Made by a program: the position numbers and the translations under genes
Notes under the pieces: generated by a model
Databases searched by the model: none
What the model saw: the letters and a program-made list of their open reading frames with translations, nothing else
What the model was told of the DNA's origin: nothing
Part shown: positions 5,482 through 42,877 of the stretch, piece after piece
How positions within the stretch are numbered: position 1 is the first letter of the stretch
Layout of the letters: every line of letters starts with the position of its first letter
DNA from: an uncultured Halobacteriales archaeon
GTDB taxonomy: Archaea > Halobacteriota > Halobacteria > Halobacteriales > Haloarculaceae
Assembly: GCA_964569925.1 (NCBI GenBank)
Contig: CAZMWG010000001.1
Span: 1 to 51,349, forward strand
Direction of reading: 5' to 3'
Length of the DNA stretch: 51,349 bases

Positions 5482-5560
5482 GGTGCTCGTGGCGGACCGA
5501 GTCCGCCGTCCCCCCATCCACGCGGTGGTGGATTGCGCTCCGTTGGTTGAAACGCTACTC

Positions 5561-5598
5561 GAATAAATCTTTGGAACCATTATCAGAAATATAGTTCG
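5561..5598 (-). promoter_or_regulatory. AT-rich island, candidate TATA/BRE promoter of the GH5 gene 3478..5481
   Basis: The minus strand reads cgaactatatttctgataatggttccaaagatttattc, in an otherwise ~70% GC context, 80-115 nt upstream of ATG 5481. Confidence 0.4.
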
Positions 5599-10171: not shown

Positions 10172-13100
10172 TCAGGACCGGTCGATCTCCTGGAACAGTT
10201 CCACGACGTCGTCCAGGTCGATCCGGTCGTTGCCGTTGAGGTCGTAGGCCGCGACGTTGTCGGTCAGGGTCGCCTCCTCGCGGTTCTGGTAGTAGGTGAC
10301 CACGTCGTCGTAGTCGACCCGGCCGTTGGCGTTGAGGTCCTCGTGGATCCCGTCGCCGTCGAGGTCTGCCGGCACCGTCCCGTCGATCGGCGGGAGGCTG
10401 GTCACGGAGACGTCGGCCTCGCCGCCCTCGACGGTGAAGCTCCCCCCGTCGTCGTCGTCGAACCGGGTCGGCTCGACCGTCAGGTCGACGTCGCCGGCCG
10501 ACCGACCCGCGAGTCGGACCGTCGCGAGGACGGCGTCCGCCGCGCCGTCCGTCACCGATCCGTCGGGCTCGTCGCTCTCACCGACATCGACCGCGCCCAG
10601 CGTGGCGGAGGCGCCGTCCGCCGCCACCGTCGACCGGGAGATGCTGAACGCGTCCGGATGGGAGACCTCCTCGACGGTCGCCACGGACGGGTCGGAGACC
10701 GTCAGCTCGGCCTCGTATCCCGAGAGGCCGTCGGGCGCGGCCGACAGCACCACCTGCGCGGTCGTCGTCCCGCCGGTCGGCACATCGTCGTCCGAGAGCG
10801 ACAGCGACAGGGTCGGCTCGTCGGCCTCGACGACCGGCAGACCGGTCACGCGCAGCGGCTCGTCCGCGGGCTCGTCGTCGGGCGTCAGGTAGCCGAGCGC
10901 CACGCCGGTGTACACCGCGCCGGCCTCGAAGGCCACGTCGTAGCTGGCCACCGCGCTCGATCCGCCGGCCGGCCGCACCTCCAGGGTGAGGTCGGCGGCC
11001 GGGACGGTCGTCGTCGCCACCTCGCCGAACTCCAGCCCCGACACCACCGGATCGCCGCCCGCGGGCGCGACGTCCACCGCGGGGGCGTCGGGCGAGGCGT
11101 GGAACAGCGTCACCCGGGCGCGCCCCCCCGGATCGGAGCGGTCGTCGACGGTGACGTCGAGTCCGAACGCCGTCTCGCCCGCCTCCTCGCTCAGCTCTCC
11201 CTCCGCGATCACCGTGTAGCTGGTGTCGGCCTCGACCGTGTAACCGCGCTCGATCACGGTCGTGTCGGGGTCGCCCGCCGGCGTGATCCGCACGGTCCGC
11301 TCGCCGGCCGGGACGATCAGGTAGTCGCTGACGGCGCCGAAGGGCACGTCCGCCAGGGCGACCGACCCGTCGACGCGGACGTCGACGTTCGGGGCGTCGG
11401 GCGAGGCGTGGATCACCCGCACGCCGGCCTCGCCCTCCGGTTCCTCGACGACCGGCAGGCCGGTCAGCCGGAACGGCTCGTCCGCGGGCTCGTCGCCCGG
11501 CGTCAGGTAGCCGAGCGCCAGCCCGGTGTACGTCTCGCCGGCCTCGAACGACAGATCGTACGTCCCGACCGGATCGCCGCCGGCGGCGGGCCGCACCTCC
11601 ACGGTCGCCTCCGTCGCGGGGACCGCCGTCGTCGCCGCGTCGCCGAAGGCCAGGTTCGAGACCAGCGTCGTCCCGCCGGCGGTGACGATGTCCACCGCGG
11701 GGGCGTCGGGCGAGGCGTGGAACAGCGTCACCCGGGCGCCCTCGGGCTCCGAGCGGTCGTCGGTCCGCAGGCCCACCTCGAAGCTCCCGGCACCGCTCCC
11801 CGTCGAGAGTTCGCCGCGGGCGATGGCGGTGTAGCTCGTCTCCGCGGCCACCGTCACCGTCCCCTCGAAGGCGACCGTGCTCGGGTCGCCGGCGGCGGTG
11901 ATCTCGACCGTCCGCTCGCCGGCCGGAACGGTCAGGTAGTCGCTGACGGCGCCGAAGGGCACGTCCGAGAGCACCGTCGACCCGTCGACGCTGACGTCCA
12001 CGTTCGGGGCGTCGGGCGAGGCGTGGATCACCCGCAGGGAGCCCTCGCCGTCGGGCTGGGTCACCCCGTCGCCGGCCTCGACGGGCGCCATCCCGTCGAC
12101 CTCCGCCAGCGCCATCACCAGCGGCGCGGTGTAGTCGATGGCCCACTCGTTGGTGGCGTACGAGCCCAGGTCGTCGTAGTAGCCCAGCCCCTCCGGCGTC
12201 CCGGGGTCGACGTGGTCGATCGTCGAGTCCCCGCCGTAGACGGCTTCGCCGCCGGCGTACAGGTCCGAGACGTGGGGTCCCCCGACGAGCATCCCCGGGA
12301 CGAGTAGCCCCTGGCTCTCGACGATCCGGTCGTGGGGGTCGTCGGGCGAGCGCTCCCCGTAGCCCGTGACGTAGGAGTAGTTCGTCGCCGACCGCCCCAG
12401 CACGTGGTGGAGCGGCTCCAGCAGCCAGTCGCCGTTCTGGTCGCCGATGTAGTCGTCGACCGCCAGGTCGACGCCGATCGAACACTGCGCCGCCCGCGAC
12501 ACCCCGGCGCCCGCACAGCCCCAGTAGTAGTCGTACAGCCCGGTGGTGTAGGCGTCCTGCGGGCGGTTCCAGTCGCCCGAGCGGTACCGCTGTGTGACGT
12601 ACACCCGCTTCTGCATCGCCGTCGCCGCGACGTCGGCGTCGGCGCCGTCCGTGTTCGCGTACGCGATGTGGCCAAGCGAGACCGGGTTGTCCCAGCCGAT
12701 CGGTCCCGCGGGGTACGTCCCCGACTCCCCCGGGAGCGGGATCTCGGACCCGCCGGCGTTCAGGTACGGCGGCAGTTCCTCCCGGATGTACTCGTCGTAC
12801 CGCTCGTCGCCGGTGGTCCGGAGCAGTTCCGCCGCCGCCCAGTACCGGTCGGGGGCGTCCTCCTGTGCCGCCTCGATCTCCGAGAGGGACTTGGGCAGGG
12901 GGTAAGGTTCGTCGACACGGCGGGCCCGCTCGACCTGCTGCTCGTAGGACTCACGCCAGTACGGCCCGGTCCCGGCGTTCTGCCCCTCCGACATCGCCCA
13001 CACCGTCTCCGGGTGTTCGATCAGGTACCCCCAGCCCGCCTCGGCGTTCTCGAGCATCTCGTCGGCGAACGCGGGGTCGTACTCCTCGAACACCCGCGCG

Positions 13101-14098
13101 GCCATGGCGAAGGTCCCGACCGCCATCGCCGTCCCCGCCGAGGAGGTCCCGAACACGTACCGCTCCTGGTCGTCGTCCTCGGGGGCGAGGTCCATGTCGC
13201 CGAAGTCGAGCCCGCCGTTGATGTAGAACAGCGACCCGTCGGACCGCTGCATCCCCGAGAGAAACTCCAGCCCGTTCCGCACCTCCACTAACAGGTCCGG
13301 CATCGTCCCTGCGTGGGGGTCGCCCAGGCTCTCGGGCAGCGCCAGTTGCCCCGTCGAGAACGCCCCGGGGTTGCGCTCGTAGGCCAGCATCAACTGCGCC
13401 GCCGTCACCGCGTGCGTGATCGTATACTTCCCGTAGTCGCCGGCGTCGTACCAGCCGCCGGTGACGTCGACCGTGTCCCCCGGCTCCTCGTCGGCCAGCA
13501 GCTCGTCGCCGGTCAGGTAGTCGGCCTCGGCCGGCCCGGCGACGGTCGCGGTCGCGTCGTCCTCGTGTCCTGGCCCGATGTCCAGTCCCGTCACCGGGTC
13601 CCGGACGTCCGCGTTGGCGCGCTTGAGCGTGTACAGCCGGCAGACGTCGCTCAGCAGCTCCCCGTACACCTCGGCCGGCTCGCCGATCCGGAACGGGTAC
13701 GACTCGTACTCGCCCGCGACGACCCGGTAGGTCCCGGACTCCCCGAGGTCGCTGAAGTCGGCCCGCTTGACCGTGTGACCCGTGCTCGTCTTGTTCGCGA
13801 ACCCCCAGTCGTCCTCGAACGGCTCGCTCAGCGACCCCGAGTGGACGCTCTCGCCGGTCTCGGCGTCGACCACCTCGAACGACGACACCGATCCCAGGTC
13901 CGCCAGATCGGAACTCACCAGCGCGGTCTTGTGCATGTCGGCCGCGTAACCCACCTGATCGACCCGGATCGCGCGCTCCGGCCGATCGTGGTCCGCGACC
14001 GCCGACCCGGTCGCCGCCGTCCCCAGCGTCGACGCCGCGGCCAGCCCCCCGACCGTTCCCAACACCGTCCGCCTGTCCAGATTGACCTCGTCGGTCAT
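10172..14098 (-). CDS. secreted GH9 endoglucanase (Ig-like N-domain + GH9) - 4 DUF4397-type repeats - cohesin-like module - dockerin-like module
   Basis: Tat motif LDRRTVLGTVGG. N-terminal CelD_N-like segment IRVDQVGY. GH9 signatures DVTGGWYDAGDYGKY and YATNEWAIDYTAPLV. Four repeats of the type [LV]RVIHASPDAPNVDV / RVTLFHASPDAPAVD (about 10830-12040). Cohesin-like segment at about 10385-10825. C-terminus DLDGDGIHEDLNANGRVDYDDVVTYY...YDLNGNDRIDLDDVVELF. Confidence 0.9.
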   Translation of the reverse strand: MTDEVNLDRRTVLGTVGGLAAASTLGTAATGSAVADHDRPERAIRVDQVGYAADMHKTALVSSDLADLGSVSSFEVVDAETGESVHSGSLSEPFEDDWGFANKTSTGHTVKRADFSDLGESGTYRVVAGEYESYPFRIGEPAEVYGELLSDVCRLYTLKRANADVRDPVTGLDIGPGHEDDATATVAGPAEADYLTGDELLADEEPGDTVDVTGGWYDAGDYGKYTITHAVTAAQLMLAYERNPGAFSTGQLALPESLGDPHAGTMPDLLVEVRNGLEFLSGMQRSDGSLFYINGGLDFGDMDLAPEDDDQERYVFGTSSAGTAMAVGTFAMAARVFEEYDPAFADEMLENAEAGWGYLIEHPETVWAMSEGQNAGTGPYWRESYEQQVERARRVDEPYPLPKSLSEIEAAQEDAPDRYWAAAELLRTTGDERYDEYIREELPPYLNAGGSEIPLPGESGTYPAGPIGWDNPVSLGHIAYANTDGADADVAATAMQKRVYVTQRYRSGDWNRPQDAYTTGLYDYYWGCAGAGVSRAAQCSIGVDLAVDDYIGDQNGDWLLEPLHHVLGRSATNYSYVTGYGERSPDDPHDRIVESQGLLVPGMLVGGPHVSDLYAGGEAVYGGDSTIDHVDPGTPEGLGYYDDLGSYATNEWAIDYTAPLVMALAEVDGMAPVEAGDGVTQPDGEGSLRVIHASPDAPNVDVSVDGSTVLSDVPFGAVSDYLTVPAGERTVEITAAGDPSTVAFEGTVTVAAETSYTAIARGELSTGSGAGSFEVGLRTDDRSEPEGARVTLFHASPDAPAVDIVTAGGTTLVSNLAFGDAATTAVPATEATVEVRPAAGGDPVGTYDLSFEAGETYTGLALGYLTPGDEPADEPFRLTGLPVVEEPEGEAGVRVIHASPDAPNVDVRVDGSVALADVPFGAVSDYLIVPAGERTVRITPAGDPDTTVIERGYTVEADTSYTVIAEGELSEEAGETAFGLDVTVDDRSDPGGRARVTLFHASPDAPAVDVAPAGGDPVVSGLEFGEVATTTVPAADLTLEVRPAGGSSAVASYDVAFEAGAVYTGVALGYLTPDDEPADEPLRVTGLPVVEADEPTLSLSLSDDDVPTGGTTTAQVVLSAAPDGLSGYEAELTVSDPSVATVEEVSHPDAFSISRSTVAADGASATLGAVDVGESDEPDGSVTDGAADAVLATVRLAGRSAGDVDLTVEPTRFDDDDGGSFTVEGGEADVSVTSLPPIDGTVPADLDGDGIHEDLNANGRVDYDDVVTYYQNREEATLTDNVAAYDLNGNDRIDLDDVVELFQEIDRS
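10175..10366 (-). repeat. dockerin-like module coding segment (copy 4 of 9, variant second repeat)
   Basis: DLDGDGIHEDLNANGRVDYDDVVTYYQNREEATLTDNVAAYDLNGNDRIDLDDVVELFQEIDRS. Confidence 0.85.
10830..12040 (-). repeat. internal duplication (~615 bp period) encoding two A-B pairs of DUF4397-type repeats inside the GH9 gene
   Basis: gacgttcggggcgtcgggcgaggcgtggatcacccgca occurs at about 11389 and about 11999. tccaccgcgggggcgtcgggcgaggcgtggaacagcgtcacccgggcg occurs at about 11073 and about 11690. Confidence 0.9.
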
Positions 14099-14167: not shown

Positions 14168-15853
14168 TCAGTCCACGTCCTCGAACAGGTCGACCAGGTC
14201 GGTGTAGTCGATCCGGCCGTTGTCGTCGTAGTCGTAGGCCGCGACGTGGTCGGTCATGACCGGATCCTCCATCCGCTGGAAGTAGGTGACCACGTCGTCG
14301 TAGTCCGTTCGTCCGTTCCCGTTGAAGTCCTCGTAGTGGCCGTCGCCGTCGACGTCTCCCGGGACGGTCCCGTCGATCGGCGCGGGCCCGGCGTCGTCCT
14401 CCTCCGCCGGGGCGGTCGTCGCCGTCACGGTCGCGGCCGGCGACCGGCTCCCGCCCTCGGCGGTGGCCACGACGCCGATGCTGTAGTCGGTGTCCGGGTC
14501 GAGGTCGCCGACGGTCATCGACCGGACGCCCGCCGGGGCCGGGGCGCTCCGCGCCCCGATCTCGACGACGTGGCCCGCGACCGACCCGCTCGCCTCCCAG
14601 CGGACGGTCAGGCTCTCGGCCGTCCGGTCGACGACCCGCAGGTCCGACGGCGCCGCCGGGGTCGACCCGCCCGATCCCGGGTCGCCGTCGCCGCCGGACT
14701 TCTCGGCGGCGCGCTCGGTGTCGGCCTCGATCTCGGCGATCGTCGGCTCGTCGTCGAGGTGGACGGAGAAGCCGTCGTGGTTGCCACGCTTCTCCTGGAC
14801 GATCTCCCACAGCATCGCCGCGCTCGCGTCGCCCTCGTCCAGCGCGTCGTACCACGTCGCGTACGTCTCCGCGCGTTCGGGGTACTCGCCCGTGCCGCTC
14901 ACGTGGACGCCGAACTCCCCACAGTAGGCCGGCTTGCCCACCTCCTCGCGGGCGTCCCGGAGGTGCTCGCGGATCCACTCGGTCCCCCACTCGTGGGACT
15001 GGTTCCAGTGGTGGGGGTAGAGGTGGAACGTGCAGGCGTCGATCGTGTCGATCGCGTGCTGGTCGACGTACGCCGTCCCCTGTGAGCCGTCGTACGTCCA
15101 GCCGCTCTCGCCCTCCTTCCCGTCGTAGAACCCCTCCATCCCCGTCGAGACGAGGTGGTTCGAGTCGTACTCCTTGACGAGCGCCGACATCTCCTCGATC
15201 CACCCCGTCAGCGCCGCCACGCCGGCGTTCTCGACCCGGGGTTCGTTGGCGAGTTCCCACACCGCCACCGTCGGCTCCTCGCGGTACTCCCGCCCGGTGA
15301 GCGTGTTCTCCCGCGTCAGCACGTACTCGACGAACTCCCGGTACATCCGCCGGGTCTCGGCGTCCGTGTAGAAGTCGTCGTGGCTCGAGGCGGTGTCGGA
15401 CCACCGCACGTACTGGTCCATCCCGCCGTAGGCGCCCCAGTTGTCGGTGAACGGGATCACCAGCCTGATCCCGTGCTCGGCGGCCCGCTGGATCACGTAG
15501 TCGAAGTGTTCGAAGCCGGCCTCGTCGAACTCGCCCTTCGAGGGCTGCAGGCAGTGAGCGCCCCGCTGGCTGTTGCCCGAACACCACCCCCACGTCCGGA
15601 CGACGTCGAGGCCGACCCGCTCGGCCAACTCGAAGAACGCGTCGACCGCCCCCCGGTCGCGCCACGGGTCCTGTATCCAGAAGTTGTTCGTCCCGCTGAA
15701 GTAGCGGCGCTCGCCGTCGACGGTGAACTCCGTCCCGTCCCGCCGGACGAACGACGTCGGTCGCGCGGTCGCCGCCCCGGTCGCGCCGGCGCCGACGACC
15801 CCGGCGAGTCCCGCCGCCACGCCGCTTCTCAGCACGTCGCGTCGTGTGTGCAT
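14168..15853 (-). CDS. secreted GH5 beta-mannanase-type hydrolase - FN3 - dockerin-like module
   Basis: Tat motif TRRDVLRSG. FVRRDGTEFTVDGERRYFSGTNNFW and WELANEPR are typical of GH5 mannan endo-1,4-beta-mannosidases; nucleophile region is AYCGEFG. One FN3-like segment. C-terminus DVDGDGHYEDFNGNGRTDYDDVVTYF...YDYDDNGRIDYTDLVDLF. I preferred ATG 15853 over 15880 because the AT-rich box at 15887-15903 lies too close to 15880. Confidence 0.85.
   Translation of the reverse strand: MHTRRDVLRSGVAAGLAGVVGAGATGAATARPTSFVRRDGTEFTVDGERRYFSGTNNFWIQDPWRDRGAVDAFFELAERVGLDVVRTWGWCSGNSQRGAHCLQPSKGEFDEAGFEHFDYVIQRAAEHGIRLVIPFTDNWGAYGGMDQYVRWSDTASSHDDFYTDAETRRMYREFVEYVLTRENTLTGREYREEPTVAVWELANEPRVENAGVAALTGWIEEMSALVKEYDSNHLVSTGMEGFYDGKEGESGWTYDGSQGTAYVDQHAIDTIDACTFHLYPHHWNQSHEWGTEWIREHLRDAREEVGKPAYCGEFGVHVSGTGEYPERAETYATWYDALDEGDASAAMLWEIVQEKRGNHDGFSVHLDDEPTIAEIEADTERAAEKSGGDGDPGSGGSTPAAPSDLRVVDRTAESLTVRWEASGSVAGHVVEIGARSAPAPAGVRSMTVGDLDPDTDYSIGVVATAEGGSRSPAATVTATTAPAEEDDAGPAPIDGTVPGDVDGDGHYEDFNGNGRTDYDDVVTYFQRMEDPVMTDHVAAYDYDDNGRIDYTDLVDLFEDVD
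14171..14356 (-). repeat. dockerin-like module coding segment (copy 5 of 9)
   Basis: DVDGDGHYEDFNGNGRTDYDDVVTYFQRMEDPVMTDHVAAYDYDDNGRIDYTDLVDLFEDVD. Confidence 0.85.
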
Positions 15854-15886
15854 TCTCTGTCCCCCGACGATAGTTGCCATCTGAGA

Positions 15887-15961: not shown

Positions 15962-17707
15962 TCAGTTCGTCTCCCGGAAGAGATCGACCAGGTCGGTGTA
16001 GTCCAGGCGACCGTTGTCGTTGTAGTCGTAGGCGGCCGTGTGGTCGGTCATCGCCGGTTCCTCCATGTTCTGGAAGTAGGTGACCACGTCGTCGTAGTCC
16101 GTGTTCCCGTTGCCGTTGAGGTCCTCGTAGTAGCCGTCGCCGTCCGGGTCGGTCGGCGTCGCGCCGTCGATCGGACCCGGCGCGTCGGTCCCGCCCCCGC
16201 CGGTCCCCGTCGCGGTGACGGTGACCGTGGTGGTGCCGTCCGAGTCCTCCAGCGAGACCCGCTCCGTGACGATGCCGGCACCCGTCGAGACGGTGATCTC
16301 GTGTTCCCCGAGGAAGGCGCTGGTGGCGTAGGTGCCCGACGAGTCGGTCGTCCCGGACTCCTCGGTCCACCACTCGTCGTACACCAGCCCGGTCCAGACG
16401 TCGTAGCCGGGCTTCTTCTCGAAGTCACTGTCGAACAGCGGCGAGTGGGGCGGCGACCAGTGGAGGTCGTCCCAGAAGCCCCACATGAGGAACTGCTCGA
16501 CCGCGGGGTGGCTGAACGTCGTCTTCAGGAACTTCCGGAAGTACTCCGCCTTCGCCCGCTCGTCGAGCAACTGCTGGGAGCTCTGCGCGAAGTCGAACTC
16601 CGTGATCCGGATGCCGGTGTCGGGGACGGCCTCGGCGAAGTGGTTCAGATCGGCCATCAGCCGCTCCGGCGGGAGTCGCCGGTCCTCGCCGTTCGTGACC
16701 TTCATGTGGGACTGCATTCCCATCCCGGCGAGGTCGACGCCGCTGTCCTGGATGTGCTGTGCCCAGTTGGGGAACCAGGTCTTGGCGAAGTCGTACTCCG
16801 CGGTGAGCACGTTGAAGTCGTTGATCGCCAGCCCGACGTCGTCGGGCGCGACCTCGTCGGCCTTCTGGTACCAGTCGGCCATGATCGGCGACTTCCAGGG
16901 GACGACTTCTCCCTGCCAGAGCTTCTCCCGGTTGATCCGGTCGCCGTACACCCCGGTCTGGATCCAGTTGGCCCCGTCGTCTCCGGCCATCGCCTCGTTG
17001 ACGACCTCCCACTCCATGATGTCGTCGCCGTAGTGGGAGATGATGTCCTCGATGTGTTGCATCGACCGCTCCCGGATCGTCTCGGCGTCCCGGTCGTCGA
17101 TCGCCCGGTTGACGTCCTGCGGGATCGCGCCGACGTCACGGCGCCCCCAGATGCAGACGTGGCCCCGCACGTCGAAGCCGTTCTCCAGCAGCCGCTCCGT
17201 CGCCGCGTCCGCCCGCTCCTGGTCGCGCTCCCAGAACGCCCACTTGTGGGCGTTCTCCAGCACCGCGGTGTTGAACAGGTCGTTCGTGACCCGGCGGTAC
17301 TTGTCCCGGACCGCGTTCGACACCTGGTTGCCGTTCTTGTCCTCGCCCCGCACGTACATGTCGGCGTTGACGGCGGTCCCGAAGTGGAAGTCGTGTTCCT
17401 GCATCGAGACCGACACCTGCGCGTCCGGGATCGCCCGCCCGGACCCGTCCTCGACGACGACCTCCAGGTCGCCCATACGGTGGTCCTCGATGCGGCTGTC
17501 GGCGGCGGCCTCCCAGCCGCCGCCGTCGGACTGTGCCGCCGCCCGTCCGGTGGACATCCCCCGGACGAGGCCGGCGACCCCCAGCGCGCCCGTCGCGCGC
17601 AGCAGGTCCCGCCGGCCGACACGGCCGTCGACGACCCCAGCCGGCAGGTGGTCGGATCCGTCGTTCGATGTCTGTTCCTCGATCGTCGGGTCGGTGTCGC
17701 GTGTCAT
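15962..17707 (-). CDS. secreted GH10 xylanase-type hydrolase - small beta domain - dockerin-like module
   Basis: Tat motif GRRDLLRATG. GH10-like motifs LENAHKWAFWE, RGHVCIWG, WEVVNEAM (acid/base) and RITEFDF (nucleophile). C-terminus DPDGDGYYEDLNGNGNTDYDDVVTYF...YDYNDNGRLDYTDLVDLF. Confidence 0.85.
   Translation of the reverse strand: MTRDTDPTIEEQTSNDGSDHLPAGVVDGRVGRRDLLRATGALGVAGLVRGMSTGRAAAQSDGGGWEAAADSRIEDHRMGDLEVVVEDGSGRAIPDAQVSVSMQEHDFHFGTAVNADMYVRGEDKNGNQVSNAVRDKYRRVTNDLFNTAVLENAHKWAFWERDQERADAATERLLENGFDVRGHVCIWGRRDVGAIPQDVNRAIDDRDAETIRERSMQHIEDIISHYGDDIMEWEVVNEAMAGDDGANWIQTGVYGDRINREKLWQGEVVPWKSPIMADWYQKADEVAPDDVGLAINDFNVLTAEYDFAKTWFPNWAQHIQDSGVDLAGMGMQSHMKVTNGEDRRLPPERLMADLNHFAEAVPDTGIRITEFDFAQSSQQLLDERAKAEYFRKFLKTTFSHPAVEQFLMWGFWDDLHWSPPHSPLFDSDFEKKPGYDVWTGLVYDEWWTEESGTTDSSGTYATSAFLGEHEITVSTGAGIVTERVSLEDSDGTTTVTVTATGTGGGGTDAPGPIDGATPTDPDGDGYYEDLNGNGNTDYDDVVTYFQNMEEPAMTDHTAAYDYNDNGRLDYTDLVDLFRETN
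15965..16150 (-). repeat. dockerin-like module coding segment (copy 6 of 9)
   Basis: DPDGDGYYEDLNGNGNTDYDDVVTYFQNMEEPAMTDHTAAYDYNDNGRLDYTDLVDLFRETN. Confidence 0.85.
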
Positions 17708-17765: not shown

Positions 17766-19601
17766 TCAGTCCACGTCCTCGAACAGGTCGATCAGGTCGC
17801 CGTAGTCGACCCGACCGTTGTCGTTGTAGTCGTAGGCGGCCGCGTGGTCGGTCATCGTCGGCTCCTCCATGTGCCGGAAGTAGGTGACCACGTCGTCGTA
17901 GTCCACCTCGCCCGACCCGTTGAGGTCCTCGTAGTGGCCGTCGCCGTCGACGTCTCCCGGGACGGTCCCGTCGATCCGGGCGACCGTCGACGCCACCGAC
18001 AGGGTCGCGTCGGTCGTCGCCACCGCCATCTCGTCTCCCTCGTCGTCGTCGAGGCCCCGGACGGCGACGCTCACGTCGGTCTCGCCGGCCGACCGGCCCG
18101 CGAGGGTCACGGTCGCCAGCGGCACGTCCTGCGCGCCCGCCTGGACCGCCCGGGTGAGATCCGCCGTCTCGATGCTGGCCGACGCTCCCCCGACCTCGCC
18201 GTCCCCGTCGACGGCGTCGAGCCCCCCCGCGGGGTCGATCGACGCCACGGCCGCGACCGACGGGTCGGACACCCGGACGTCGAGCGCCGTCCCGGACACC
18301 CCCGCCGGCGCCTCGGACAGCACGACGGTCGCCGTCGTCTCGCCGCTCCGGTCGACCCCGTCGCTCGCCAGTTCGACCGCCACCGTCGACTCGTCGGCCT
18401 CGTCGCCGTCGGTGGCCGCGCCCGTCCGGGCGGCCGGGGACTCGTTGCCGGCACCGTCCACGGCCCGCACCGACACCCGGTAGCTCCGGCCGGCGGCCAG
18501 CCCGTCGACCGTCGCCCGGGTCCGGCCCGCCGGGACGGTCGTCTCCTCGCCGCCGGCCCGGACGACGTACCGCTCGACGCCGGTGCCGTCGTCCGTCGCG
18601 GCGTTCCACACCGCCTCGATCGACGACTCGGTGGCCGCGGGAACGCGCACGTTCGAGGGCGGCGTCGGTGCCGTCGCGTCCGGCGCCGCGCCGGCGCCCG
18701 ACTCCCCGCCGTCCGAGCCCCCGTCGACCTCGCTCTCGTAGGTCGTCCCGTTGACGGTGAGATCACACTGCCGGTAGGTGACCTCTCCCTGCGCGCCGGG
18801 CCAGTACTCGTTGCCCAACTCGATCCCGGTGAGCAGGAGGTCCTCGCGCACGCCGTGGCGTTCGGTCATGAACTCGATCACCTCCGCGAGGTCGACCGTT
18901 CCGGCGCTCATCCCGCCGCTCACGCGGAAGACGTGGAAGTCGGCGTCCGTCCCGCCGGTGATCGACTCCGCCCAGTAGTCGACCGTGTTGCCGAACCGGT
19001 CCGTCCAGACGTCCCGTTCGGCCGAACCGTGGCTGTGTCCGCCGCCCCAGTCCAGCAACAGCATGATCTCGTGGGTGATCGGCGGGCTCGACCCCGGTTC
19101 GCCGTCCAGCAGCCACCACTCCTCGGCCCAGTCCCACTCGCCGCCCGACACCGACAGGTCGGCGTCGACTTCCAGGACGAGTTCGTCGACGTCGCCCCGC
19201 CGGATCGGGAACTCGTCGGCCCCGCTGTGTCTCCCCCACGGCCGCGCACCGCAGAACACTTCGGGGTAGTTGATCTTGGGAGGCTCGTCGGGCCCCGACC
19301 GCGCGATCCCGGTGGCGTCGAACTCGTAGCCGAAACCGCCGTCGGCTCGCTCCCAGATACACTGCCGGGCCGGCTCCAGACTCCACTGGTTGTCCATCAG
19401 CGTCCACGTCTCGCCGACGTCGATGGTGCCACCCCCTGTGTCGCACTTCTCCGTGACCCGCTCGGCGGCCCCGAGACCGCTCGCGCCGAGTCCGAGCCCC
19501 GCGGCCCCTACGGCCGCGCCGGCGCGCAGGAACCGCCGTCGGGACGTTCCCCCCGACGCCGTGTCACCTGTCCGTTCCGTCCGTTCGTCGTCCTCTCTCA
19601 T
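17766..19601 (-). CDS. secreted GH12 endoglucanase-type hydrolase - FN3 - cohesin-like module - dockerin-like module
   Basis: Tat motif SRRRFLRAGAAVG. GH12-like pattern MDNQWS...HEIMLLLDW...GIELGNEYW. One FN3-like segment. Cohesin-like segment at about 17990-18390 (VAVELASDGVDRSGETTATVVLSEAPAGVSGTALDVRVSDPSVAAV...LATVTLAGRSAGETDVSVAVRGLDDDEGD). C-terminus DVDGDGHYEDLNGSGEVDYDDVVTYF...YDYNDNGRVDYGDLIDLF. Starts at ATG 19601. Confidence 0.8.
   Translation of the reverse strand: MREDDERTERTGDTASGGTSRRRFLRAGAAVGAAGLGLGASGLGAAERVTEKCDTGGGTIDVGETWTLMDNQWSLEPARQCIWERADGGFGYEFDATGIARSGPDEPPKINYPEVFCGARPWGRHSGADEFPIRRGDVDELVLEVDADLSVSGGEWDWAEEWWLLDGEPGSSPPITHEIMLLLDWGGGHSHGSAERDVWTDRFGNTVDYWAESITGGTDADFHVFRVSGGMSAGTVDLAEVIEFMTERHGVREDLLLTGIELGNEYWPGAQGEVTYRQCDLTVNGTTYESEVDGGSDGGESGAGAAPDATAPTPPSNVRVPAATESSIEAVWNAATDDGTGVERYVVRAGGEETTVPAGRTRATVDGLAAGRSYRVSVRAVDGAGNESPAARTGAATDGDEADESTVAVELASDGVDRSGETTATVVLSEAPAGVSGTALDVRVSDPSVAAVASIDPAGGLDAVDGDGEVGGASASIETADLTRAVQAGAQDVPLATVTLAGRSAGETDVSVAVRGLDDDEGDEMAVATTDATLSVASTVARIDGTVPGDVDGDGHYEDLNGSGEVDYDDVVTYFRHMEEPTMTDHAAAYDYNDNGRVDYGDLIDLFEDVD
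17769..17954 (-). repeat. dockerin-like module coding segment (copy 7 of 9)
   Basis: DVDGDGHYEDLNGSGEVDYDDVVTYFRHMEEPTMTDHAAAYDYNDNGRVDYGDLIDLFEDVD. Confidence 0.85.
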
Positions 19602-19651
19602 ACCTGAATCCCCCGTGTGCCGGTACGCGGTACTTGATTTCGCTTCCTCGC

Positions 19652-19688
19652 ACAAATATTATTCGATAAAAAACACGAAAGAATATGC
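19652..19688 (-). promoter_or_regulatory. AT-rich island: T-run terminator of the GH5 gene 19714..22203 plus candidate promoter of the GH12 gene
   Basis: The minus strand reads catattctttcgtgttttttatcgaataatatttgtg. It lies between the stop at 19714 and ATG 19601. Confidence 0.45.
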
Positions 19689-19713: not shown

Positions 19714-22203
19714 TTACTCGCTCGCTTCCTGGACTTCCTCGTACAGCGAGACGAGGTCGCTGAAGTCGATCCGGTCGTTGTCGTTGTAGTCGTAGGCGTC
19801 GACGTGGTCGGTCATCGCCGGCTCCTCCATGTAGTCGAAGTAGGTGACCACGTCGTCGTAGTCCAGGCTGCCGTTGCCGTTGAGGTCCTCGTAGTCGCCG
19901 TCGCCGTCCGGGTCCTCGGGGACCGCGCCGTCGATCTCGGTGAGGTCCGTCCCCTCCGGCGTGCCGACCGTCAGCATCGCCTCGGTCACCTGGACGTCGA
20001 TCGCCCCGGCGTTCCGGTCGTTCTCCATCCGCTGGACCGCCACGGCGACGCCGGTCTCGCCGGCTGACTGCCCGCGCAGCGTGACGCTACCGAGTTCGAC
20101 GTCGGTCGCGCCGGCCTGGACAGCCCCCCCCGAGTCGGCCGCCTCCAGCACGGCCGAGGAGCCGTCCGACGCAAGTTCGACCGGCCGAGTGAGCGAGTCG
20201 AGGTCGCCGTACATCCCGTTCTCGATGGTGGCGACGTCGGTGTCCTCGACGCTGACCTTGATCTTGTAGCCGCTCAGCCCGTTCGGCAGTTCGGACACCA
20301 TGATCGCCGCCCGGACCATCCCGCCGGGGGTCACCGTCTCGGTCTGTTGCTCGATCGACAGCGTCGGACCGCCGTCGCCGCCGGTCTCGCCGCCGTCGCC
20401 GCCCCCGCCGTCGTCGCCGCCCCCGCCGTCGTACGCGTCGGTGCTGGCCGACGCCATGACGGGGTCGGAGACGTTGCCGGCCTCGTCGACGGCCTGCAGC
20501 GTCATCTCGTAGTCGGTGTCCGGGTCGAGCCCCGACACCGTCGCCTCCGTTCCGGAGACGGTCTTCATCATCCCCTGGAACCCGATCTGGTAGCTGTCGA
20601 CGCCGCCGCCGACGTCGTCGGGGTCGGTGCTCGGCGACCACGACAGCGAGACGCTCGTCGCCGTCGTCCCGGTGACCGAGACGTTCGACGGCGCCGTCGG
20701 CGGCGTCCGGTCCTGCCGCGGGGTCGGGTTCCCGCCACCGCCGCCGGTGTCCTCACACTCGGACTCGGCGACCGGAAGGTCCTGGTCGGCCCGGGCCGCC
20801 AGGAACTCCTTGTACCAGCGGGCGTGGAACTCCTCGTAGGGCTGGAGGGTCTCGAAGTTCTGCCCCTGGAAGAACGCCGGCGACCAGGTGTGATCGAAAC
20901 ACCAGGCCCCCGGGTGGACATCGTAGTTGTTGAAGAACTGCTCGTACTCCGGGGCCTCCGTCTCGGTCGTGCCGTCGATGAACCCGAAGTCGTTGGCGCC
21001 CCCGCCCTCGGCCCAGCCGAACTCGTTGAAGAAGACGGGCGCCTGCTCGGCCGCCGGCCCGTAGTAGTCGCCCATCGGCGAGAGCGTGTCGTGGGTGTAC
21101 CGGTGGCCGTTGTAACACATGTTCGTGATGTCGCTGTAGGTCGACCCCACGTCCATGAGTTCCATCTCGCTGGCCCAGTAGGTGTACTGGCTCCAGCGGG
21201 GCGACCCCAGCGTCTTCACGCTGCCCGGCGCGTTCTCCTCGACGATCTTCACCCACGGCGCGGCCCGTTCGAGCCACAGCCGCCAGTAGGGCTTGGCCCG
21301 CTCGGAGAGGACGTCCGTGTCGTTGCCGGCCTCGTCGCCGCCGCCCGCCGGCGGCTCGTCCGGATGCCCCCAGTCGCCCGCGTACGGGCCCGTCGGCTCG
21401 TTGAAGACGTCGAAGATGATGTGGGGCTCGTCGGCGTACCGGTCCGCGACCGTCTCCCAGAACATCGTCAGCTCCGAGTCCAGTTCCTCGGCGTGGGTCT
21501 CGTACCAGGCGTCGTCGGGCGACCCCTCGAGGCCCTGGATCTCCGAGACCTGGTCCGCGCCGTGCCACAGCACGCCGCGCTCGCCACACATCCCCTGGTC
21601 GTACTGGAAGGTCTCGTTCTGACAGCGAGGCCACTGGCTCACCTCGTCGGCGTACTGGGGCTGGTGGAAGATGGGGAAGTGTCGGTGGTAGTCCAGCATC
21701 AGGTAGACGCCCCGCTCCTTGGACATCTCCACCAGCGGGTCGACGAACCGCTCCAGATACCGGGTCAGCTCCGACTCGTCGAACGACCCCGGCAGGATCG
21801 GTCCCCAGTTGTCCTGGTGTTTCATGTTCGTCGTCCGACCCGCCACCTCGGCGCTGATGTCCTGGGGCTGCATCGGCAGCCGCAGGTACGTGTTCGCCCA
21901 CTCCTCGCTCGTGGCCATCTCCAGCATCTCCTCGGCGGTCGCCCCGCGCCAGTTGCGCTGGGCCCGCGACGGGTCGATCAGGTTTACCCCCCGGAGGATA
22001 ACCTGGTTCCCGCAGGGGTCGACGAGCTCGTTCCCCTCGCGCTCGAGCTGGGGCGTCGGGATCCCGTCGGCGGCCGACGAGGCCGCGTTCCCGACGACCG
22101 ACGAGCCCAGCGCCAGCCCGGCGGTCGCCGCGCTGACCCCCTTCAGCACCGTCCGCCGTGTGGTCGTGTTCTGTGCCGTCCCGTGACTGTGTTCGTCCGT
22201 CAT
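19714..22203 (-). CDS. secreted GH5 endoglucanase-type hydrolase - FN3 - cohesin-like module - dockerin-like module
   Basis: Tat motif TRRTVLKGVSAATAG. GH5 motifs IIFDVFNEP and VFFNEFGW. One FN3-like segment. Cohesin-like segment at about 19965-20370 (LSIEQQTETVTPGGMVRAAIMVSELPNGLSGYKIKVSVEDTDVATI...LGSVTLRGQSAGETGVAVAVQRMENDRN). C-terminus DPDGDGDYEDLNGNGSLDYDDVVTYF...YDYNDNDRIDFSDLVSLY. Starts at ATG 22203. Confidence 0.9.
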   Translation of the reverse strand: MTDEHSHGTAQNTTTRRTVLKGVSAATAGLALGSSVVGNAASSAADGIPTPQLEREGNELVDPCGNQVILRGVNLIDPSRAQRNWRGATAEEMLEMATSEEWANTYLRLPMQPQDISAEVAGRTTNMKHQDNWGPILPGSFDESELTRYLERFVDPLVEMSKERGVYLMLDYHRHFPIFHQPQYADEVSQWPRCQNETFQYDQGMCGERGVLWHGADQVSEIQGLEGSPDDAWYETHAEELDSELTMFWETVADRYADEPHIIFDVFNEPTGPYAGDWGHPDEPPAGGGDEAGNDTDVLSERAKPYWRLWLERAAPWVKIVEENAPGSVKTLGSPRWSQYTYWASEMELMDVGSTYSDITNMCYNGHRYTHDTLSPMGDYYGPAAEQAPVFFNEFGWAEGGGANDFGFIDGTTETEAPEYEQFFNNYDVHPGAWCFDHTWSPAFFQGQNFETLQPYEEFHARWYKEFLAARADQDLPVAESECEDTGGGGGNPTPRQDRTPPTAPSNVSVTGTTATSVSLSWSPSTDPDDVGGGVDSYQIGFQGMMKTVSGTEATVSGLDPDTDYEMTLQAVDEAGNVSDPVMASASTDAYDGGGGDDGGGGDGGETGGDGGPTLSIEQQTETVTPGGMVRAAIMVSELPNGLSGYKIKVSVEDTDVATIENGMYGDLDSLTRPVELASDGSSAVLEAADSGGAVQAGATDVELGSVTLRGQSAGETGVAVAVQRMENDRNAGAIDVQVTEAMLTVGTPEGTDLTEIDGAVPEDPDGDGDYEDLNGNGSLDYDDVVTYFDYMEEPAMTDHVDAYDYNDNDRIDFSDLVSLYEEVQEASE
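19717..19914 (-). repeat. dockerin-like module coding segment (copy 8 of 9)
   Basis: DPDGDGDYEDLNGNGSLDYDDVVTYFDYMEEPAMTDHVDAYDYNDNDRIDFSDLVSLYEEVQEASE. Confidence 0.85.
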
Positions 22204-22331
22204 CGTGTGTTCGTGTGGACTGTCCGACCGGTCGGACCCCCCTCCCGGTCCGCGCGTCCTCGCGCTCGTTCGTCGCACTGTACCCCCCACCGGACCCGAG
22301 CCACGACGGCCCGGGTCCGACGCCTCCGGAC

Positions 22332-25300
22332 CTACCCCGACATCTCCTCGAACAGCGAGACCACGTCGGCCAGATCCAGGCCGCCGTTGCCGTTGAAGTC
22401 GTAGGCCTCCGGGTGGGACGTGATCGCCTCGTCGTCGCGCTCGTAGTAGTACTGGATCACGTCCGTGAACTCCACCTCCCCGTTGGCGTTGAGGTCCTCG
22501 TACAGCCCGTCGTCGTCGATGTCCTGGGGCGTGATCCCGTTGATCGGCGAGACGCCGCCGGTGTCCGTCTCCTCGGTCACCGACAGGACCGCGGTCACGT
22601 CGCCGACCGACATCGGGTTGCCGTCGTCGTCGTCGAACTTGCCCGTCGACAACACGAGCTCCGTGCTGCCGGTCGACTCGGCGTCGAGCGTGACCGTCGC
22701 CAGCGTCACGTCGGCGGCGCCGGGCTGGACCTCCTGGCCGAGGTCGGTCCCGTTCATCGACACCGAGCCGCCGTCGTCGGCCACGCTCGCGCCGCCGATC
22801 ATCCCCCCGCTGCCGAAGGCGCTGGTGACGCCCGCGTCCGTGATCGTCGCCACCGCCGGGTCGGCGACCTCGAGGGTGGCGTTGAACCCGGAGATGCCCG
22901 TCGGCGCCGACGGCAACAGGATCGTCGCCTCGACGGTCCCGCCGGGCGCGGCCTCGGCGGGCGACAGCGCTAGGTCGACGCCCTCGCCGTCGACGCCGCC
23001 GCCGACCGTCCCGTCGTCGTCGCCGGGCTCGCCGTCGTCGGAGCCGTCGTCGGCGTCGTCCTCGTCACCGCCGGAGTCGCCCCCGACGACGAGGGTCGTC
23101 GTCGTCTCCCCCGGCGACGTCAGCCCGCCGTCGTCGTCGGTGAGCCGGTCGACCGACAGCGAGAGGTCGACGTCGCCCTCGCTCTCGCCGGCCAGCGTGA
23201 CCGTCGCCAGCGTGACGTCCGTGGCGCCGGGCTGGACCGCTCCGCCGAAGTCGATGCCCGTCGCCGTCATCGAACCCTCGCCCACGTCGGCGCCGCCGGC
23301 CGGCCCCTGGAACCTCTCGAGCAGCCCGCCGTCCGCGATCGTCGCGATCGACGTGTCCGAGACCTCGAACGCGAGGTCGAAGCCGGCCACCCCCTCCGGG
23401 GCGGCGCCCAGCACCAGTTCCGCGTCGACGGTCCCGCCGGCGGGGACGTCGTCGGCCTCGAGGTCGACCGAGAGGTCGCCGTCGCCGGCGTCGTCCTCGT
23501 CGTCGGAGCCGTCGCCCGTGCCGTCGCCGGCGTCGCCCTCGCCGCCCTCCGTCTCGACGGAGAGCGGGGCGCTCGCGCTCGTCGACATCCGGCTCCCGTC
23601 GCCCATGTCGACGTTCGCCTCGACGGAGACGTCCGCCTCGCCGGCGGCCTCGCCGACGAGGGTCACCGTCCCCAGGTCGACGTCCACGGCGTCCGGCTGG
23701 ACGGCGTTGTTGACGTCGCCGCCACGCAGCGTCGCCGTGGCGCCGTCGCCGCTCACGGTCGCCGAAGTCGGCTGGAACGACCCCGGGATCGTCGCCGAGT
23801 CGACGGTGACGACGTCCGTGTCGCTCACGGTCAGGTCGAGGTAGAAGCCGGTCATGTTCCCGGCCATCGACGGGAGTGTGATCGTCGCCGCGACCTCCTC
23901 GCCCGGCGCGACCGTGTCCGAGGCCAAGTCCAGCGAGACGCCCGAACCGTCCCCGGTCCCGTCGTCGCCGCCGCCGGCGTCGTCCTCACCCTCGTCGCCG
24001 GCGCCGCCGTCACCGACGACGAGCGTCGACGAGCCGCTCGCCGACGCCTGGCTCCCGTCGGCCAGGTCCATACTGCCCGCCGCGGACACCGACGCTTCGC
24101 CCTCGCCCTCGACGGTCATGGTGACCGTCGCCAGCGTGACGTCCGTGGCGCCGGCGGGGACGTCGTCGTTGACGTCGCCGCCGCGGAAGGAGGCGAAGGC
24201 ACCGCCGTCGGCGACGGAACTCTCGGCGAACCGGAACCAGTCGGCGGTCTCGATCCCGGTGATCGTCGCCACCGACGTGTCGTCGATCGAGACCTCGACG
24301 TCGAAGCCGGTCGGGTTCCCGGCGATCGACGGGAGGACGACCGTCGCCTCCACCTCGTCGCCGGGTTCGGCACCCGACGGGAGGTCGACGACGAGTCCGT
24401 CGCTCGCGGTGCCGTCCTCCCCGTCGTCGGAGCCGTCGTCGCCGGAACCGTCGTCGACGCCGCCGTCACCGACGACGATCGTCGACGAGCCGCTCGCCGA
24501 GACCCGACCGCCGTCGGCCAGGTCCATGCCACCGGTCGCCGTCAGGGAAGCTTCCCCCTCGCCCTCGACGGCCAGCGTGACCGTCGCGAGCGGCACGTCG
24601 GTGGCGCCGGCGGGGACGTCGTCGTTGACGTCGCCGCCGCGGAAGGAGGCGGAACCCCCGTTGTCGGCGACGGAACTCTCGGCGAACCGGAACCAGTCGG
24701 CGGTCTCGATCCCGGTGATCGTCGCCACCGACGTGTCGTCGATCGAGACCTCGACGTCGAAGCCGGTCGGGTCCCCGGCGATCGACGGGAGGGTGATCGT
24801 CGCCTCCACCTCGTCGCCGGGCTCGGCTCCGGACGGCAGCCCGACCGCCAGCCCGTCGCTCGCGGTGCCGTCCTCCCCGTCGCCGGCGCCGCCGTCACCG
24901 ACGACGATCGTCGACGAGCCGCTCGCCGACGCCTGGCTCCCGTCGGCCAGGTCCATACTGCCCGCCGCGGACACCGACGCTTCGCCCTCGCCCTCGACGG
25001 TCATGGTGACCGTCGCCAGCGTGACGTCCGTGGCGCCGGCGGGGACGTCGTCGTTGACGTCGCCGCCGCGGAAGGAGGCGAAGGCACCGCCGTCGGCGAC
25101 GGAACTCTCGGCGAACCGGAACCAGTCGGCGGTCTCGATCCCGGTGATCGTCGCCACCGACGTGTCGTCGATCGAGACCTCGACGTCGAAGCCGGTCGGG
25201 TTCCCGGCGATCGACGGGAGGACGACCGTCGCCTCCACCTCGTCGCCGGGTTCTGCACTCGACGGGAGGTCGACGACGAGCCCGTCGCTCGCGGTGCCGT

Positions 25301-26687: not shown

Positions 26688-26746
26688 TCTTCCCCCCCAG
26701 CGTGCGTCTCCGCACTGAGGTACCCACATCGTTCGTGGTGTCCATA

Positions 26747-26783
26747 CCATAAAAAAATAGCGGTAGATAGTGAAATATAATCG
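26747..26783 (-). promoter_or_regulatory. AT-rich island: T7 run downstream of the anchor gene plus candidate promoter of the scaffoldin gene
   Basis: The minus strand reads gattatatttcactatctaccgctatttttttatgg, 60-95 nt upstream of ATG 26687. Confidence 0.45.
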
Positions 26784-28632: not shown

Positions 28633-28793
28633 CCCGACGGCCCGTCGCCGTCGGACCGCGCTTCGACCGTCGACGGACGCCGCCGTCGGTTCCGTGGCCG
28701 GAGGCCACGCCATCTGCCCCGTGGCCGGGAGCCACGCCGCCGTCCCCCGCCGGAGGGGACGACCCTTTGTCCGTGCACCTCGTCGTCGGGGTG

Positions 28794-42641: not shown

Positions 42642-42877
42642 GGGACGGCGGCCCGACGAGGGCGGCGATACGCTCGTCGTACCCGGACAGGTCGGCGCGG
42701 AAAGCCCGCGTTGTCCGGGTTCACGCGACGAGGTAACTCGGCTCCGTGTACCGTTCGCATACGTTTCGTACTTCTGACTGTTATCGACGGTAAGTCGGAA
42801 AATCGGGGGTACTGGGGTCTTACTCCGGTGGACGGTCGTATCGGTTTTTGGCAGTTACGTGTCAACCGACGGTCGCA

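Follow-up and report, generated by a model that had tools for sequence, protein, structure and literature searches.

The DNA analysed here, hereafter the window, is a stretch of 51,349 nucleotides from an uncultured Halobacteriales archaeon (contig CAZMWG010000001.1 of assembly GCA_964569925.1), with a G+C content of about 72%. Its long minus-strand open reading frames (ORFs) encode very acidic products with twin-arginine signals. Nine co-oriented genes lie on this strand at 3478-26750. Five of them encode glycoside hydrolases (GHs) of family 5 (GH5a to GH5e) and three encode a GH9, a GH10 and a GH12-type enzyme, the ninth being a non-catalytic protein of 1472 amino acids (aa), named Sca, with seven repeats of about 133 aa. 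The best homologues of the encoded proteins belong to Halomicrobium, Halosimplex, Natrinema and further members of the Halobacteria, which identifies the host as a haloarchaeon. As a whole, the region 3478-27470 on the minus strand reads as a complete cellulosome-like gene cluster, which would comprise an anchor cohesin protein (Anc), a seven-cohesin scaffoldin with a dockerin (Sca) and eight dockerin enzymes. What marks a cellulosome, namely a multi-cohesin non-catalytic scaffoldin together with several dockerin-bearing glycoside hydrolases, is present within one cluster: Sca carries seven cohesins and a dockerin, and eight GH5, GH9, GH10 and GH12 enzymes carry a dockerin. An earlier note on this DNA, made from the letters alone, had likewise counted seven scaffoldin sites. 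The subject of this work is the tail of three of the enzymes, GH12, GH9 and GH5e, in which a cohesin-like module (Coh) stands before the dockerin-like module (Doc).

Each of these three tails consists of a true cohesin-fold module and, at the C-terminus, a dockerin-like module. The earlier note had placed such modules in GH12, GH9 and one GH5, and both fold and hidden Markov model (HMM) evidence bear this out; in the case of GH12, the cohesin spans 17991-18389, compared to the 17990-18390 first proposed. The cohesin was also said to lie immediately before the dockerin, and indeed the gap between the two modules is only 5 aa in GH12, 4 aa in GH9 and 9 aa in GH5e. In all three enzymes the dockerin ends 0-4 aa from the C-terminus.

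To describe the fold, the GH12 module was modelled with AlphaFold2 (AF2), which resulted in a nine-stranded model with a predicted local distance difference test score (pLDDT) of 87.6 and a predicted template modelling score (pTM) of 0.80. When this model was compared to the Protein Data Bank (PDB) with Foldseek, the best 32 matches were all cohesins, with a probability of 1.00 and template modelling (TM) scores of 0.66-0.80. The top fold matches were the enzyme-borne cohesins of Clostridium perfringens GH84C and GH33, and the cohesin of Archaeoglobus fulgidus (2XDH, TM 0.73) was also among the matches. A model of the complete Coh-Doc tandem (pLDDT 88.9) again retrieved cohesins. A generic Ig, Big or CARDB spacer was considered as well and is ruled out, the first non-cohesin fold ranking only 33rd.

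Pfam and NCBIfam gave no usable cohesin call on the isolated modules, and the assignment rests on structure prediction and on purpose-built HMMs. With an HMM of the seven Sca cohesins alone, the enzyme modules reached 82-93 bits (E 1e-21 to 1e-24 at Z=1e6), the value for GH12 being 92.3 bits, and cohesin HMMs built from other genomes only gave 83-106 bits. These independent scores exclude a chance similarity to cohesins. Regarding sequence identity, the enzyme-borne cohesins share 28-41% with the Sca cohesins and only 28-30% with the cohesin of Anc. A comparable range is seen inside the scaffoldin itself, where cohesins c6 and c7 are 34-42% identical to c1-c5.

Regarding the second part of the tail, all nine proteins were found to end in a conserved module of about 69 aa that has two DxNxNGxxDxxD loops and, after each loop, a helix. 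In the loops, DLNGSGEVDYDD and DYNDNGRVDYGD, the D, N, G and D positions are invariant across the nine modules. The modules thus have the two 12-residue calcium-binding loops of a dockerin, with D or N at positions 1, 3 and 5, D at position 12 and a helix thereafter; in the AF2 model of the tandem these helices span tandem residues 165-174 and 197-207. A dockerin HMM built from other genomes only scored all nine window dockerins at 82-96 bits (GH12, 86.8). With the Pfam family Dockerin_1 (PF00404, cut-off 22.9) window scores were marginal at 16.9-24.7 bits: GH5b passed (24.7), GH12 remained below (20.1), and GH9 and GH5e were unmatched at E<=0.01. Archaeal relatives pass this family at 25.8 and 36.5 bits. 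The reading as a dockerin is sensible because of the loop-helix layout lacking an entering helix before loop 1, the C-terminal place on secreted hydrolases, the co-occurring cohesin arrays and the relatives that pass Dockerin_1. All nine window dockerins additionally have an invariant DxDxDGxxED loop right before the first canonical calcium loop (e.g. 17928-17957), unlike classical dockerins; this loop may be a third calcium site.

Table 1. Features of the cellulosome-like cluster and of the related loci discussed in the text.
Feature	Positions	Strand	Composition or remark	Basis
GH5a	3478-5580	-	Doc without Coh	
GH5b	5746-7467	-	Doc without Coh	
GH5c	7640-10048	-	Doc without Coh	
GH9 gene	10172-14098	-	Tat signal, CelD_N, GH9, 4x DUF4397, Coh, Doc	
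GH9 dockerin-like module	10181-10387	-	aa 1238-1306	HMM
GH9 cohesin-fold module	10400-10816	-	aa 1095-1233	HMM
GH5d	14168-15880	-	Doc without Coh	
GH10	15962-17707	-	Doc without Coh	
GH12 gene	17766-19655	-	Tat signal, GH12 domain (by homology), FN3, Coh, Doc	
GH12 dockerin-like module	17769-17975	-	aa 561-629	HMM; Pfam Dockerin_1 20.1 bits
GH12 cohesin-fold module	17991-18389	-	aa 423-555 of ORF 17766-19655	HMM envelope, AF2, Foldseek
GH5e gene	19714-22290	-	Tat signal, GH5, FN3, Coh, Doc	
GH5e dockerin-like module	19729-19935	-	aa 786-854	HMM
GH5e cohesin-fold module	19963-20367	-	aa 642-776	HMM
Scaffoldin Sca	22332-26750	-	Tat signal, N-terminal domain, FN3, seven cohesins, divergent C-terminal dockerin	
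Sca cohesins	25347-25745, 24897-25286, 24468-24857, 24012-24401, 23553-23945, 23082-23480, 22575-22985	-		
Sca divergent dockerin	22338-22544	-	10 aa past last cohesin	
Putative anchor Anc	26817-27470	-	217 aa; Sec-type signal, one divergent cohesin, Gly/Ser linker, PGL motif, hydrophobic helix, basic tail	
Anc anchor-type cohesin	26991-27380	-		
Sca and GH9 dockerins, two genera	window 22338-22544, 10181-10387; L081 2301-2504, 9606-9794			
Carrier and anchor two-gene unit	L002-L019, L041, L075, others; about 10600-11400 in each locus			

To place the three tails among other proteins, representative genomes of species were scanned for Coh-Doc tandems. Many haloarchaeal genera had contiguous matches, as did methanogens, further archaeal metagenome-assembled genomes (MAGs) and a few bacteria. 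The proteins carrying the tandem were PhoX phosphatases, PhoD, staphylococcal-type nucleases, beta-helix/NosD proteins and PKD proteins; the PhoX family, of about 890 aa, occurs in Haloarcula, Halorientalis, Halorubrum, Halopiger, Halomicrobium and others. The 81 loci contained 43 Coh-Doc ORFs, 8 Coh-Coh-Doc ORFs and 4 Coh-Doc-Coh-Doc ORFs, and the gap from Coh to Doc had a median of 14 aa (60 tandems). As a word-indexed protein search with the cohesin profile returned 10 matches and missed known relatives, 1.84 billion representative proteins were searched exhaustively by profile instead; 486 clusters matched at E<=1e-30, and 2993 did so at E<=1e-10. In 134 of the 148 best representatives Coh-Doc were the last two modules at the extreme C-terminus, and 41 carriers matched 68 different Pfam families. 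Judging from these sequences, Coh-Doc is a stereotyped and common C-terminal cassette on unrelated archaeal secreted enzymes, definable as a single cohesin with a dockerin that comes within about 5-30 aa and forms the very C-terminal end of a secreted protein. GH12, GH9 and GH5e fall under this definition. The earlier note had called catalytic subunits built in this way unusual. This is correct for bacterial cellulosomes and fails for Archaea, because there the tandem is common on unrelated secreted enzymes.

The cassette often comes with a partner gene. In 27 archaeal loci, the gene immediately after a Coh-Doc carrier gene (for PhoX, PhoD, a nuclease or another secreted enzyme) encodes a product made up of a signal peptide, a single cohesin, a linker and a membrane helix; several of these products have an explicit PGF motif. 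Such a pair, with the membrane-anchored cohesin gene directly after the carrier, is not found in the window, where Anc is the sole anchor-type gene, lying upstream of Sca and not adjoining GH12, GH9 or GH5e. Within the PhoX loci, the cohesins of tandems and those of anchors fall into two distinct clades, both of which are conserved across genera. As a check for co-evolution or concerted evolution, tandem and anchor cohesins were compared: identity was 36% within a locus, only slightly higher than the 31% across loci, and given these values and the two old paralogous clades, the comparison is uninformative on binding partners. Some bacterial MAGs (Thermotogae, Fraserbacteria; loci L037, L049, L057 and L070) encode proteins of about 475-490 aa that consist only of a signal peptide and Coh-Doc-Coh-Doc, the architecture that would be expected of self-assembling chains.

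Is the placement of the cassette on cellulases conserved? In Halomicrobium salinisoli (CP084463.1), we found a syntenic cluster with a scaffoldin of at least five cohesins and a dockerin. After the scaffoldin, the order is GH5e-Coh-Doc, GH5-Doc, GH9-Coh-Doc, GH12-FN3-Coh-Doc, GH5-Doc, GH10-Doc, GH5-CBM6-Doc, FN3-Doc and GH5-Doc. Thus, in both organisms the cohesin is on the same three enzyme types, GH5e, GH9 and GH12, and the other enzymes have the dockerin only. Between the two organisms, the cohesins are 54% (GH12), 40% (GH9) and 41% (GH5e) identical, the upstream, catalytic parts of these orthologues 51-63% and their dockerins 58-67%. These comparisons suggest a cohesin that was retained, being somewhat less constrained in two of the three enzymes. 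Farther orthologues of GH5e and GH9 (P0068 and P0079) likewise end in Coh-Doc. Variation was also seen: P0064 is 70% identical to GH5b and yet has Coh-Doc, GH5b having the dockerin only, and the same relation holds between P0067 and Hs_GH5x, which are 67% identical. From these alignments it appears that the cassette can be gained or lost between orthologues. In a third haloarchaeon, Halomontanus rarus (CP119796.1; L082 10001-16420), a GH5 is fused to eight cohesins and ends in a domain of the type found at the N-terminus of Sca. The next gene encodes a protein of 239 aa that has a Tat signal and a single cohesin and shows a clear PGF-CTERM, and dockerin-bearing GH5 and GH10 genes follow.

The scaffoldin and the putative anchor are the other two sides of the system. 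Cohesins 2, 3 and 4 of Sca (within 23553-25286) are 85-98% identical to each other and the remaining ones 34-48%; this high identity points to a recent internal duplication of cohesins 2-4. The N-terminal domain of Sca (aa about 72-225, 26076-26537), which starts with LLVNDYDGDPAWPEGNDIGNW, gave only a faint match to CBM_11 (E=0.23) and no match in a PDB sequence search, and it is not assignable to a CBM family. As it recurs at the C-terminus of the haloarchaeal cellulases P0003, P0039 and P0058, it is a candidate for a new cellulose-binding module. The dockerins of Sca in the window and in H. salinisoli have a private signature, EFTDVI.YYY.R and DL.DVVSLF, which suggests a second specificity. 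The dockerins of GH12, GH9 and GH5e group with the ordinary enzyme dockerins, with GH9 partly apart.

The Anc gene lies directly upstream of Sca, and its cohesin is the eleventh copy in the window. This cohesin is of the anchor type, scoring 87.8 bits with the anchor-type HMM compared to 46.8 bits with the tandem-type HMM and 47 bits with the Sca-only HMM. The C-terminus of Anc was unmatched by the NCBIfam model PGF-CTERM. Anc-like proteins of other archaea end in explicit PGF motifs, and by its layout Anc looks like an anchor of the PGF-CTERM/archaeosortase type. With the tandem-type and anchor-type HMMs, both built from other haloarchaea, the cohesins of GH12 and GH5e differ by less than 1 bit and the Sca cohesins are ambiguous too, while the GH9 cohesin leans to the anchor type (106 compared to 85 bits). 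In the neighbour-joining (NJ) tree the GH9 cohesin clusters with membrane-anchor cohesins. However, resolution of the NJ trees is poor for cohesins and dockerins alike, robust results being limited to the clade of scaffoldin dockerins and the divergent position of Anc.

Several details of single genes should be added. The longest ORF of GH12 begins at a TTG, and the database protein P0001 (611 aa) begins at the ATG at 19601, which is likely the true start. The GH12 protein has no direct Pfam match to a catalytic family; its assignment comes from homologues, P0002, 50% identical, bearing PF01670 and relatives being labelled 'GH12 family' by NCBI. In the case of GH9, four DUF4397 repeats lie between the catalytic domain and the cohesin (10830-12100, aa about 665-1090), repeats that the H. 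salinisoli orthologue does not have. A second secreted DUF4397 protein is encoded in the window at 42848-43717 on the plus strand, and in P0063 DUF4397 is joined to Coh-Doc. About 1 kb from the Anc gene, a gene of the Na+/Ca2+ exchanger family lies at 28536-29723 on the plus strand (Pfam Na_Ca_ex, E=2.4e-52); the dockerins of the adjoining cluster should need Ca2+, and this vicinity may be a coincidence.

With respect to export, the earlier note had pointed to twin-arginine translocation (Tat) signals. A twin-arginine motif followed by a hydrophobic stretch is indeed found in all nine dockerin proteins (SRRRFL in GH12, DRRTVL in GH9, TRRTVL in GH5e and similar ones in the other six), and Anc lacks this motif. 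Support from the Tat HMM was weak except for GH5e (TIGR01409, 17.4 bits compared to a cut-off of 16.7). As a special feature of these proteins, however, the signal does not count, Tat being routine in haloarchaea, in which about half of all secreted proteins take this pathway (PMC3387779). The earlier note had further conjectured that low cytoplasmic Ca2+ might keep the modules from pairing prematurely.

From the folds, homology, domain order, conservation and gene context described above, we infer the following binding steps and choices of partner. Anc would tether the system to the membrane. The differently patterned dockerin of Sca would plug into Anc, the product of the neighbouring gene, mirroring the carrier and anchor gene pairs of other archaea. 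The dockerins of the eight enzymes would plug into the seven Sca cohesins, or into a cohesin on another enzyme. In this arrangement the cohesins of GH12, GH9 and GH5e would be free sockets for enzyme-type dockerins: further enzymes could ride piggy-back on a docked enzyme, raising the load above seven, and GH12, GH9 and GH5e could form head-to-tail chains or mini-complexes independent of the scaffoldin. Most probably the enzyme-borne cohesins share the specificity for enzyme dockerins, because their identity to the Sca cohesins is in the internal range of Sca itself and is lower to Anc. That a subunit with both a socket and a plug could act as an adaptor or polymerise head-to-tail had been proposed in the earlier note; by analogy to the starch-degrading enzyme Amy4 (PMC4611034) this is plausible and in our view the best reading. 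We lean, although only slightly, towards the enzyme-borne cohesins being live extra sockets that enable such piggy-back or head-to-tail assembly.

Several observations weigh against these live sockets. That an enzyme-borne cohesin binds a dockerin is a prediction based on sequence, models and analogy. Pfam Cohesin (PF00963) left the three enzyme modules unmatched even at E<=10; among the scaffoldin modules it matched one only, at 18.0 bits and below its cut-off of 24.1. The profile of the enzyme modules found only weak cohesin matches among PDB sequences (5lxv_A, E=0.014; 5m2o_A, 0.039; 5aoz_A, 0.054). In the same type of search the dockerin profile gave E values from 6.6e-6 with EF-hand proteins and of 0.002-0.009 with solved dockerins, thus EF-hands scored equally well or better. 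As Pfam Cohesin is unmatched and Dockerin_1 is marginal, 'cohesin-like' and 'dockerin-like' are the right wording. Further points would also fit a rigid structural dyad, in which the cohesin-like module binds nothing in trans and serves as a spacer or stabiliser for the dockerin, like the X module in bacterial type II X-dockerins, or holds the enzyme off the scaffold. The linker is short and stereotyped, with 4-9 aa here and the median of 14 aa given above, and it is modelled with a pLDDT of 78-85 in a tandem with a pTM of 0.67. Conservation of exposed residues in the enzyme-borne set was 0.29 on the 8-3-6-5 sheet, the presumed dockerin face, compared to 0.37 on the other sheet, i.e. without excess on the binding face, in a crude method with ambiguous strand parity and without an anchor-cohesin control. 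Finally, the cohesins of GH9 and GH5e evolve faster than their own catalytic domain and dockerin. On the other hand, five enzymes of the cluster bear the same dockerin without a cohesin and orthologues differ in the presence of the cohesin; the dockerin is therefore independent of the cohesin, and a pure spacer role becomes less likely. In sequence, the modules also fall inside the spread of the Sca cohesins, themselves necessarily sockets, and there are experimental precedents for dockerin-binding cohesins on enzymes (Amy4 and the C. perfringens entries). Overall, we regard the rigid dyad as unlikely.

Even as live sockets, the enzyme-borne cohesins could have another partner. They might bind the scaffoldin-type dockerin, so that a docked GH12, GH9 or GH5e recruits a further scaffoldin and dendritic poly-cellulosomes arise, or they might bind dockerin proteins encoded elsewhere in the genome. 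Such a second specificity would agree with the signature of the Sca dockerin, conserved in two genera, with the anchor-leaning score and NJ grouping of the GH9 cohesin and with an arginine that the GH9 dockerins of both genera have in common with the scaffoldin dockerins where other enzymes have methionine. However, the cohesins of GH12 and GH5e show no preference for the anchor type, the adjoining Anc is the obvious partner of the Sca dockerin by analogy with the 27 carrier and anchor pairs, and the trees are poorly resolved, which makes this explanation quite improbable to us. A last possibility is intramolecular self-capping: the dockerin would fold onto the cohesin of the same chain and inhibit or protect it, e.g. 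during cytoplasmic folding and Tat export, until a scaffoldin cohesin displaces it. Both partners are indeed on one chain, the proteins are exported folded via Tat and the cohesin of Amy4 recognises its own dockerin. Against this, the linker of 4-9 residues together with the conserved N-terminal extension of the dockerin gives little freedom to swing onto the side face of the cohesin, and the Coh-Doc-Coh-Doc and Coh-Coh-Doc proteins fit an intermolecular assembly better. Auto-inhibition of the own dockerin, which the earlier note had offered as an option, is less likely because of this linker length, and we consider it very improbable.

In C. perfringens, cohesin and dockerin are on different enzymes and no scaffoldin is known. 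Its GH84C and GH33 (PDB 2jh2, 2w1n, 2vo8) match the GH12 module best in structure (TM 0.75-0.80). Here too the cohesin is on a catalytic glycoside hydrolase and in 2w1n adjoins an FN3 domain, as in GH12 and GH5e of the window. These are, however, bacterial toxin- or mucin-degrading enzymes, and sequence identity is only 11-19%. In functional terms, the closest analogue is Amy4 of Ruminococcus bromii, a GH13 with cohesin and dockerin, whose cohesin binds the dockerins of Amy4, Amy9 and Amy10 (PMC4611034). Both systems have a catalytic subunit with a cohesin and a C-terminal dockerin; for Amy4, enzyme-on-enzyme complexes and multimers are predicted, and a separate cohesin, Sca2, anchors to the cell surface (PMC4611034). 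The same source cites the A. fulgidus pair as a further case that presumably multimerises (PMC4611034). Differences are that the R. bromii system belongs to a Firmicutes bacterium, acts on starch and uses a sortase anchor, the layout being on one enzyme only and no seven-cohesin scaffoldin being described; in the window it is on three cellulases beside a seven-cohesin scaffoldin, in an archaeon and with Tat export.

C. perfringens thus provides the closest structural matches and Amy4 the closest functional analogue, and by kind the nearest relatives are those cohesin-dockerin proteins of archaea that have been termed 'non-cellulosomal', including the A. fulgidus proteins (Bayer 1999; Peer 2009; PDB 2XDH). 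These share archaeal cohesin and dockerin modules with the window, as the 2XDH match illustrates, and the X-Coh-Doc proteins described above belong to this class. According to papers citing Peer 2009, those archaea lack large multi-cohesin scaffoldins and a link to cellulose, and the function is called unknown (PMC9012536; PMC5244752). In the window, in contrast, the cassette is on cellulases beside a seven-cohesin scaffoldin. Archaea of the ANME groups encode proteins that combine a single dockerin with as many as five cohesins, besides numerous secreted proteins bearing a dockerin (PMC9012536). Their cargo is mostly substrate-binding proteins, without cellulases and without experimental work, and the proposed role is in cell adhesion or syntrophy (PMC9012536).

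The bacterial adaptor and catalytic scaffoldins, such as ScaA and ScaB of Acetivibrio cellulolyticus and CipA of Clostridium thermocellum (CohI9-X-DocII, PDB 3kcp), also combine cohesins and a dockerin on one chain that extends the complex (PMC4959524). Structure 3kcp aligns over both parts of our tandem model, and the Sca of the window likewise ends in Coh-Doc. Adaptor scaffoldins, however, are non-catalytic, with several cohesins, an X module in between and cohesin and dockerin of different types, whereas the window enzymes are ordinary enzymes with a single cohesin directly before the dockerin. An identity as bacterial-type adaptor scaffoldins was therefore rejected: the proteins are catalytic (GH12, GH9, GH5), have one cohesin and no second specificity is demonstrable.

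Textbooks place cellulosomes in anaerobic bacteria and fungi. A 2025 review treats them in the same way, as machines of these two groups (PMC12484212); in it, the word 'archaea' is absent and archaeal content is limited to the A. fulgidus cohesin-dockerin pair used in engineering. In the open-access texts searched, Peer 2009 not being among them, we found no paper tying cohesin, dockerin or scaffoldin to haloarchaeal cellulases, and both cohesin and dockerin go unmentioned in a comparative genomics study of cellulolytic haloarchaea from 2023. Thus, a haloarchaeal cellulosome-like system looks undescribed in the open-access literature searched. What is new here is the archaeal Coh-Doc cassette placed on cellulases within a haloarchaeal cellulosome-like cluster.

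In conclusion, the window, H. salinisoli and H. rarus provide a full parts list in haloarchaea, i.e. an anchor cohesin, a scaffoldin with 7-8 cohesins and dockerin-bearing cellulases, and the three Coh-Doc cellulases tie this cluster to the very common archaeal pair of X-Coh-Doc and anchor genes. As H. salinisoli and H. rarus are named strains with sequenced genomes, a direct experiment is possibly feasible, and salt-stable cohesin-dockerin pairs would also be of use in building designer enzyme complexes. Should the enzyme-borne cohesins prove to be live sockets, a simple and testable rule for open-ended enzyme stacking would follow, along with a purpose for the widespread archaeal tandem. As a more speculative extension, which we put forward only tentatively, the Coh-Doc tail could be a general archaeal device for self-propagating display: a membrane-anchored cohesin would take the dockerin of a first X-Coh-Doc protein and the cohesin of the latter the next one, resulting in head-to-tail chains on the surface. 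Through multiplication of the cohesin within one protein, haloarchaea would then have turned this device into a true cellulosome, and the three Coh-Doc cellulases would make this complex open-ended or branched and free it from the limit of seven sites. If this were true, it would be an archaeal cellulosome, for which the papers searched gave no precedent, together with a function for hundreds of 'non-cellulosomal' archaeal cohesin-dockerin proteins. The cluster is of interest mainly because a module pair widespread in archaea is linked here to a system that allows the role of this pair to be tested.

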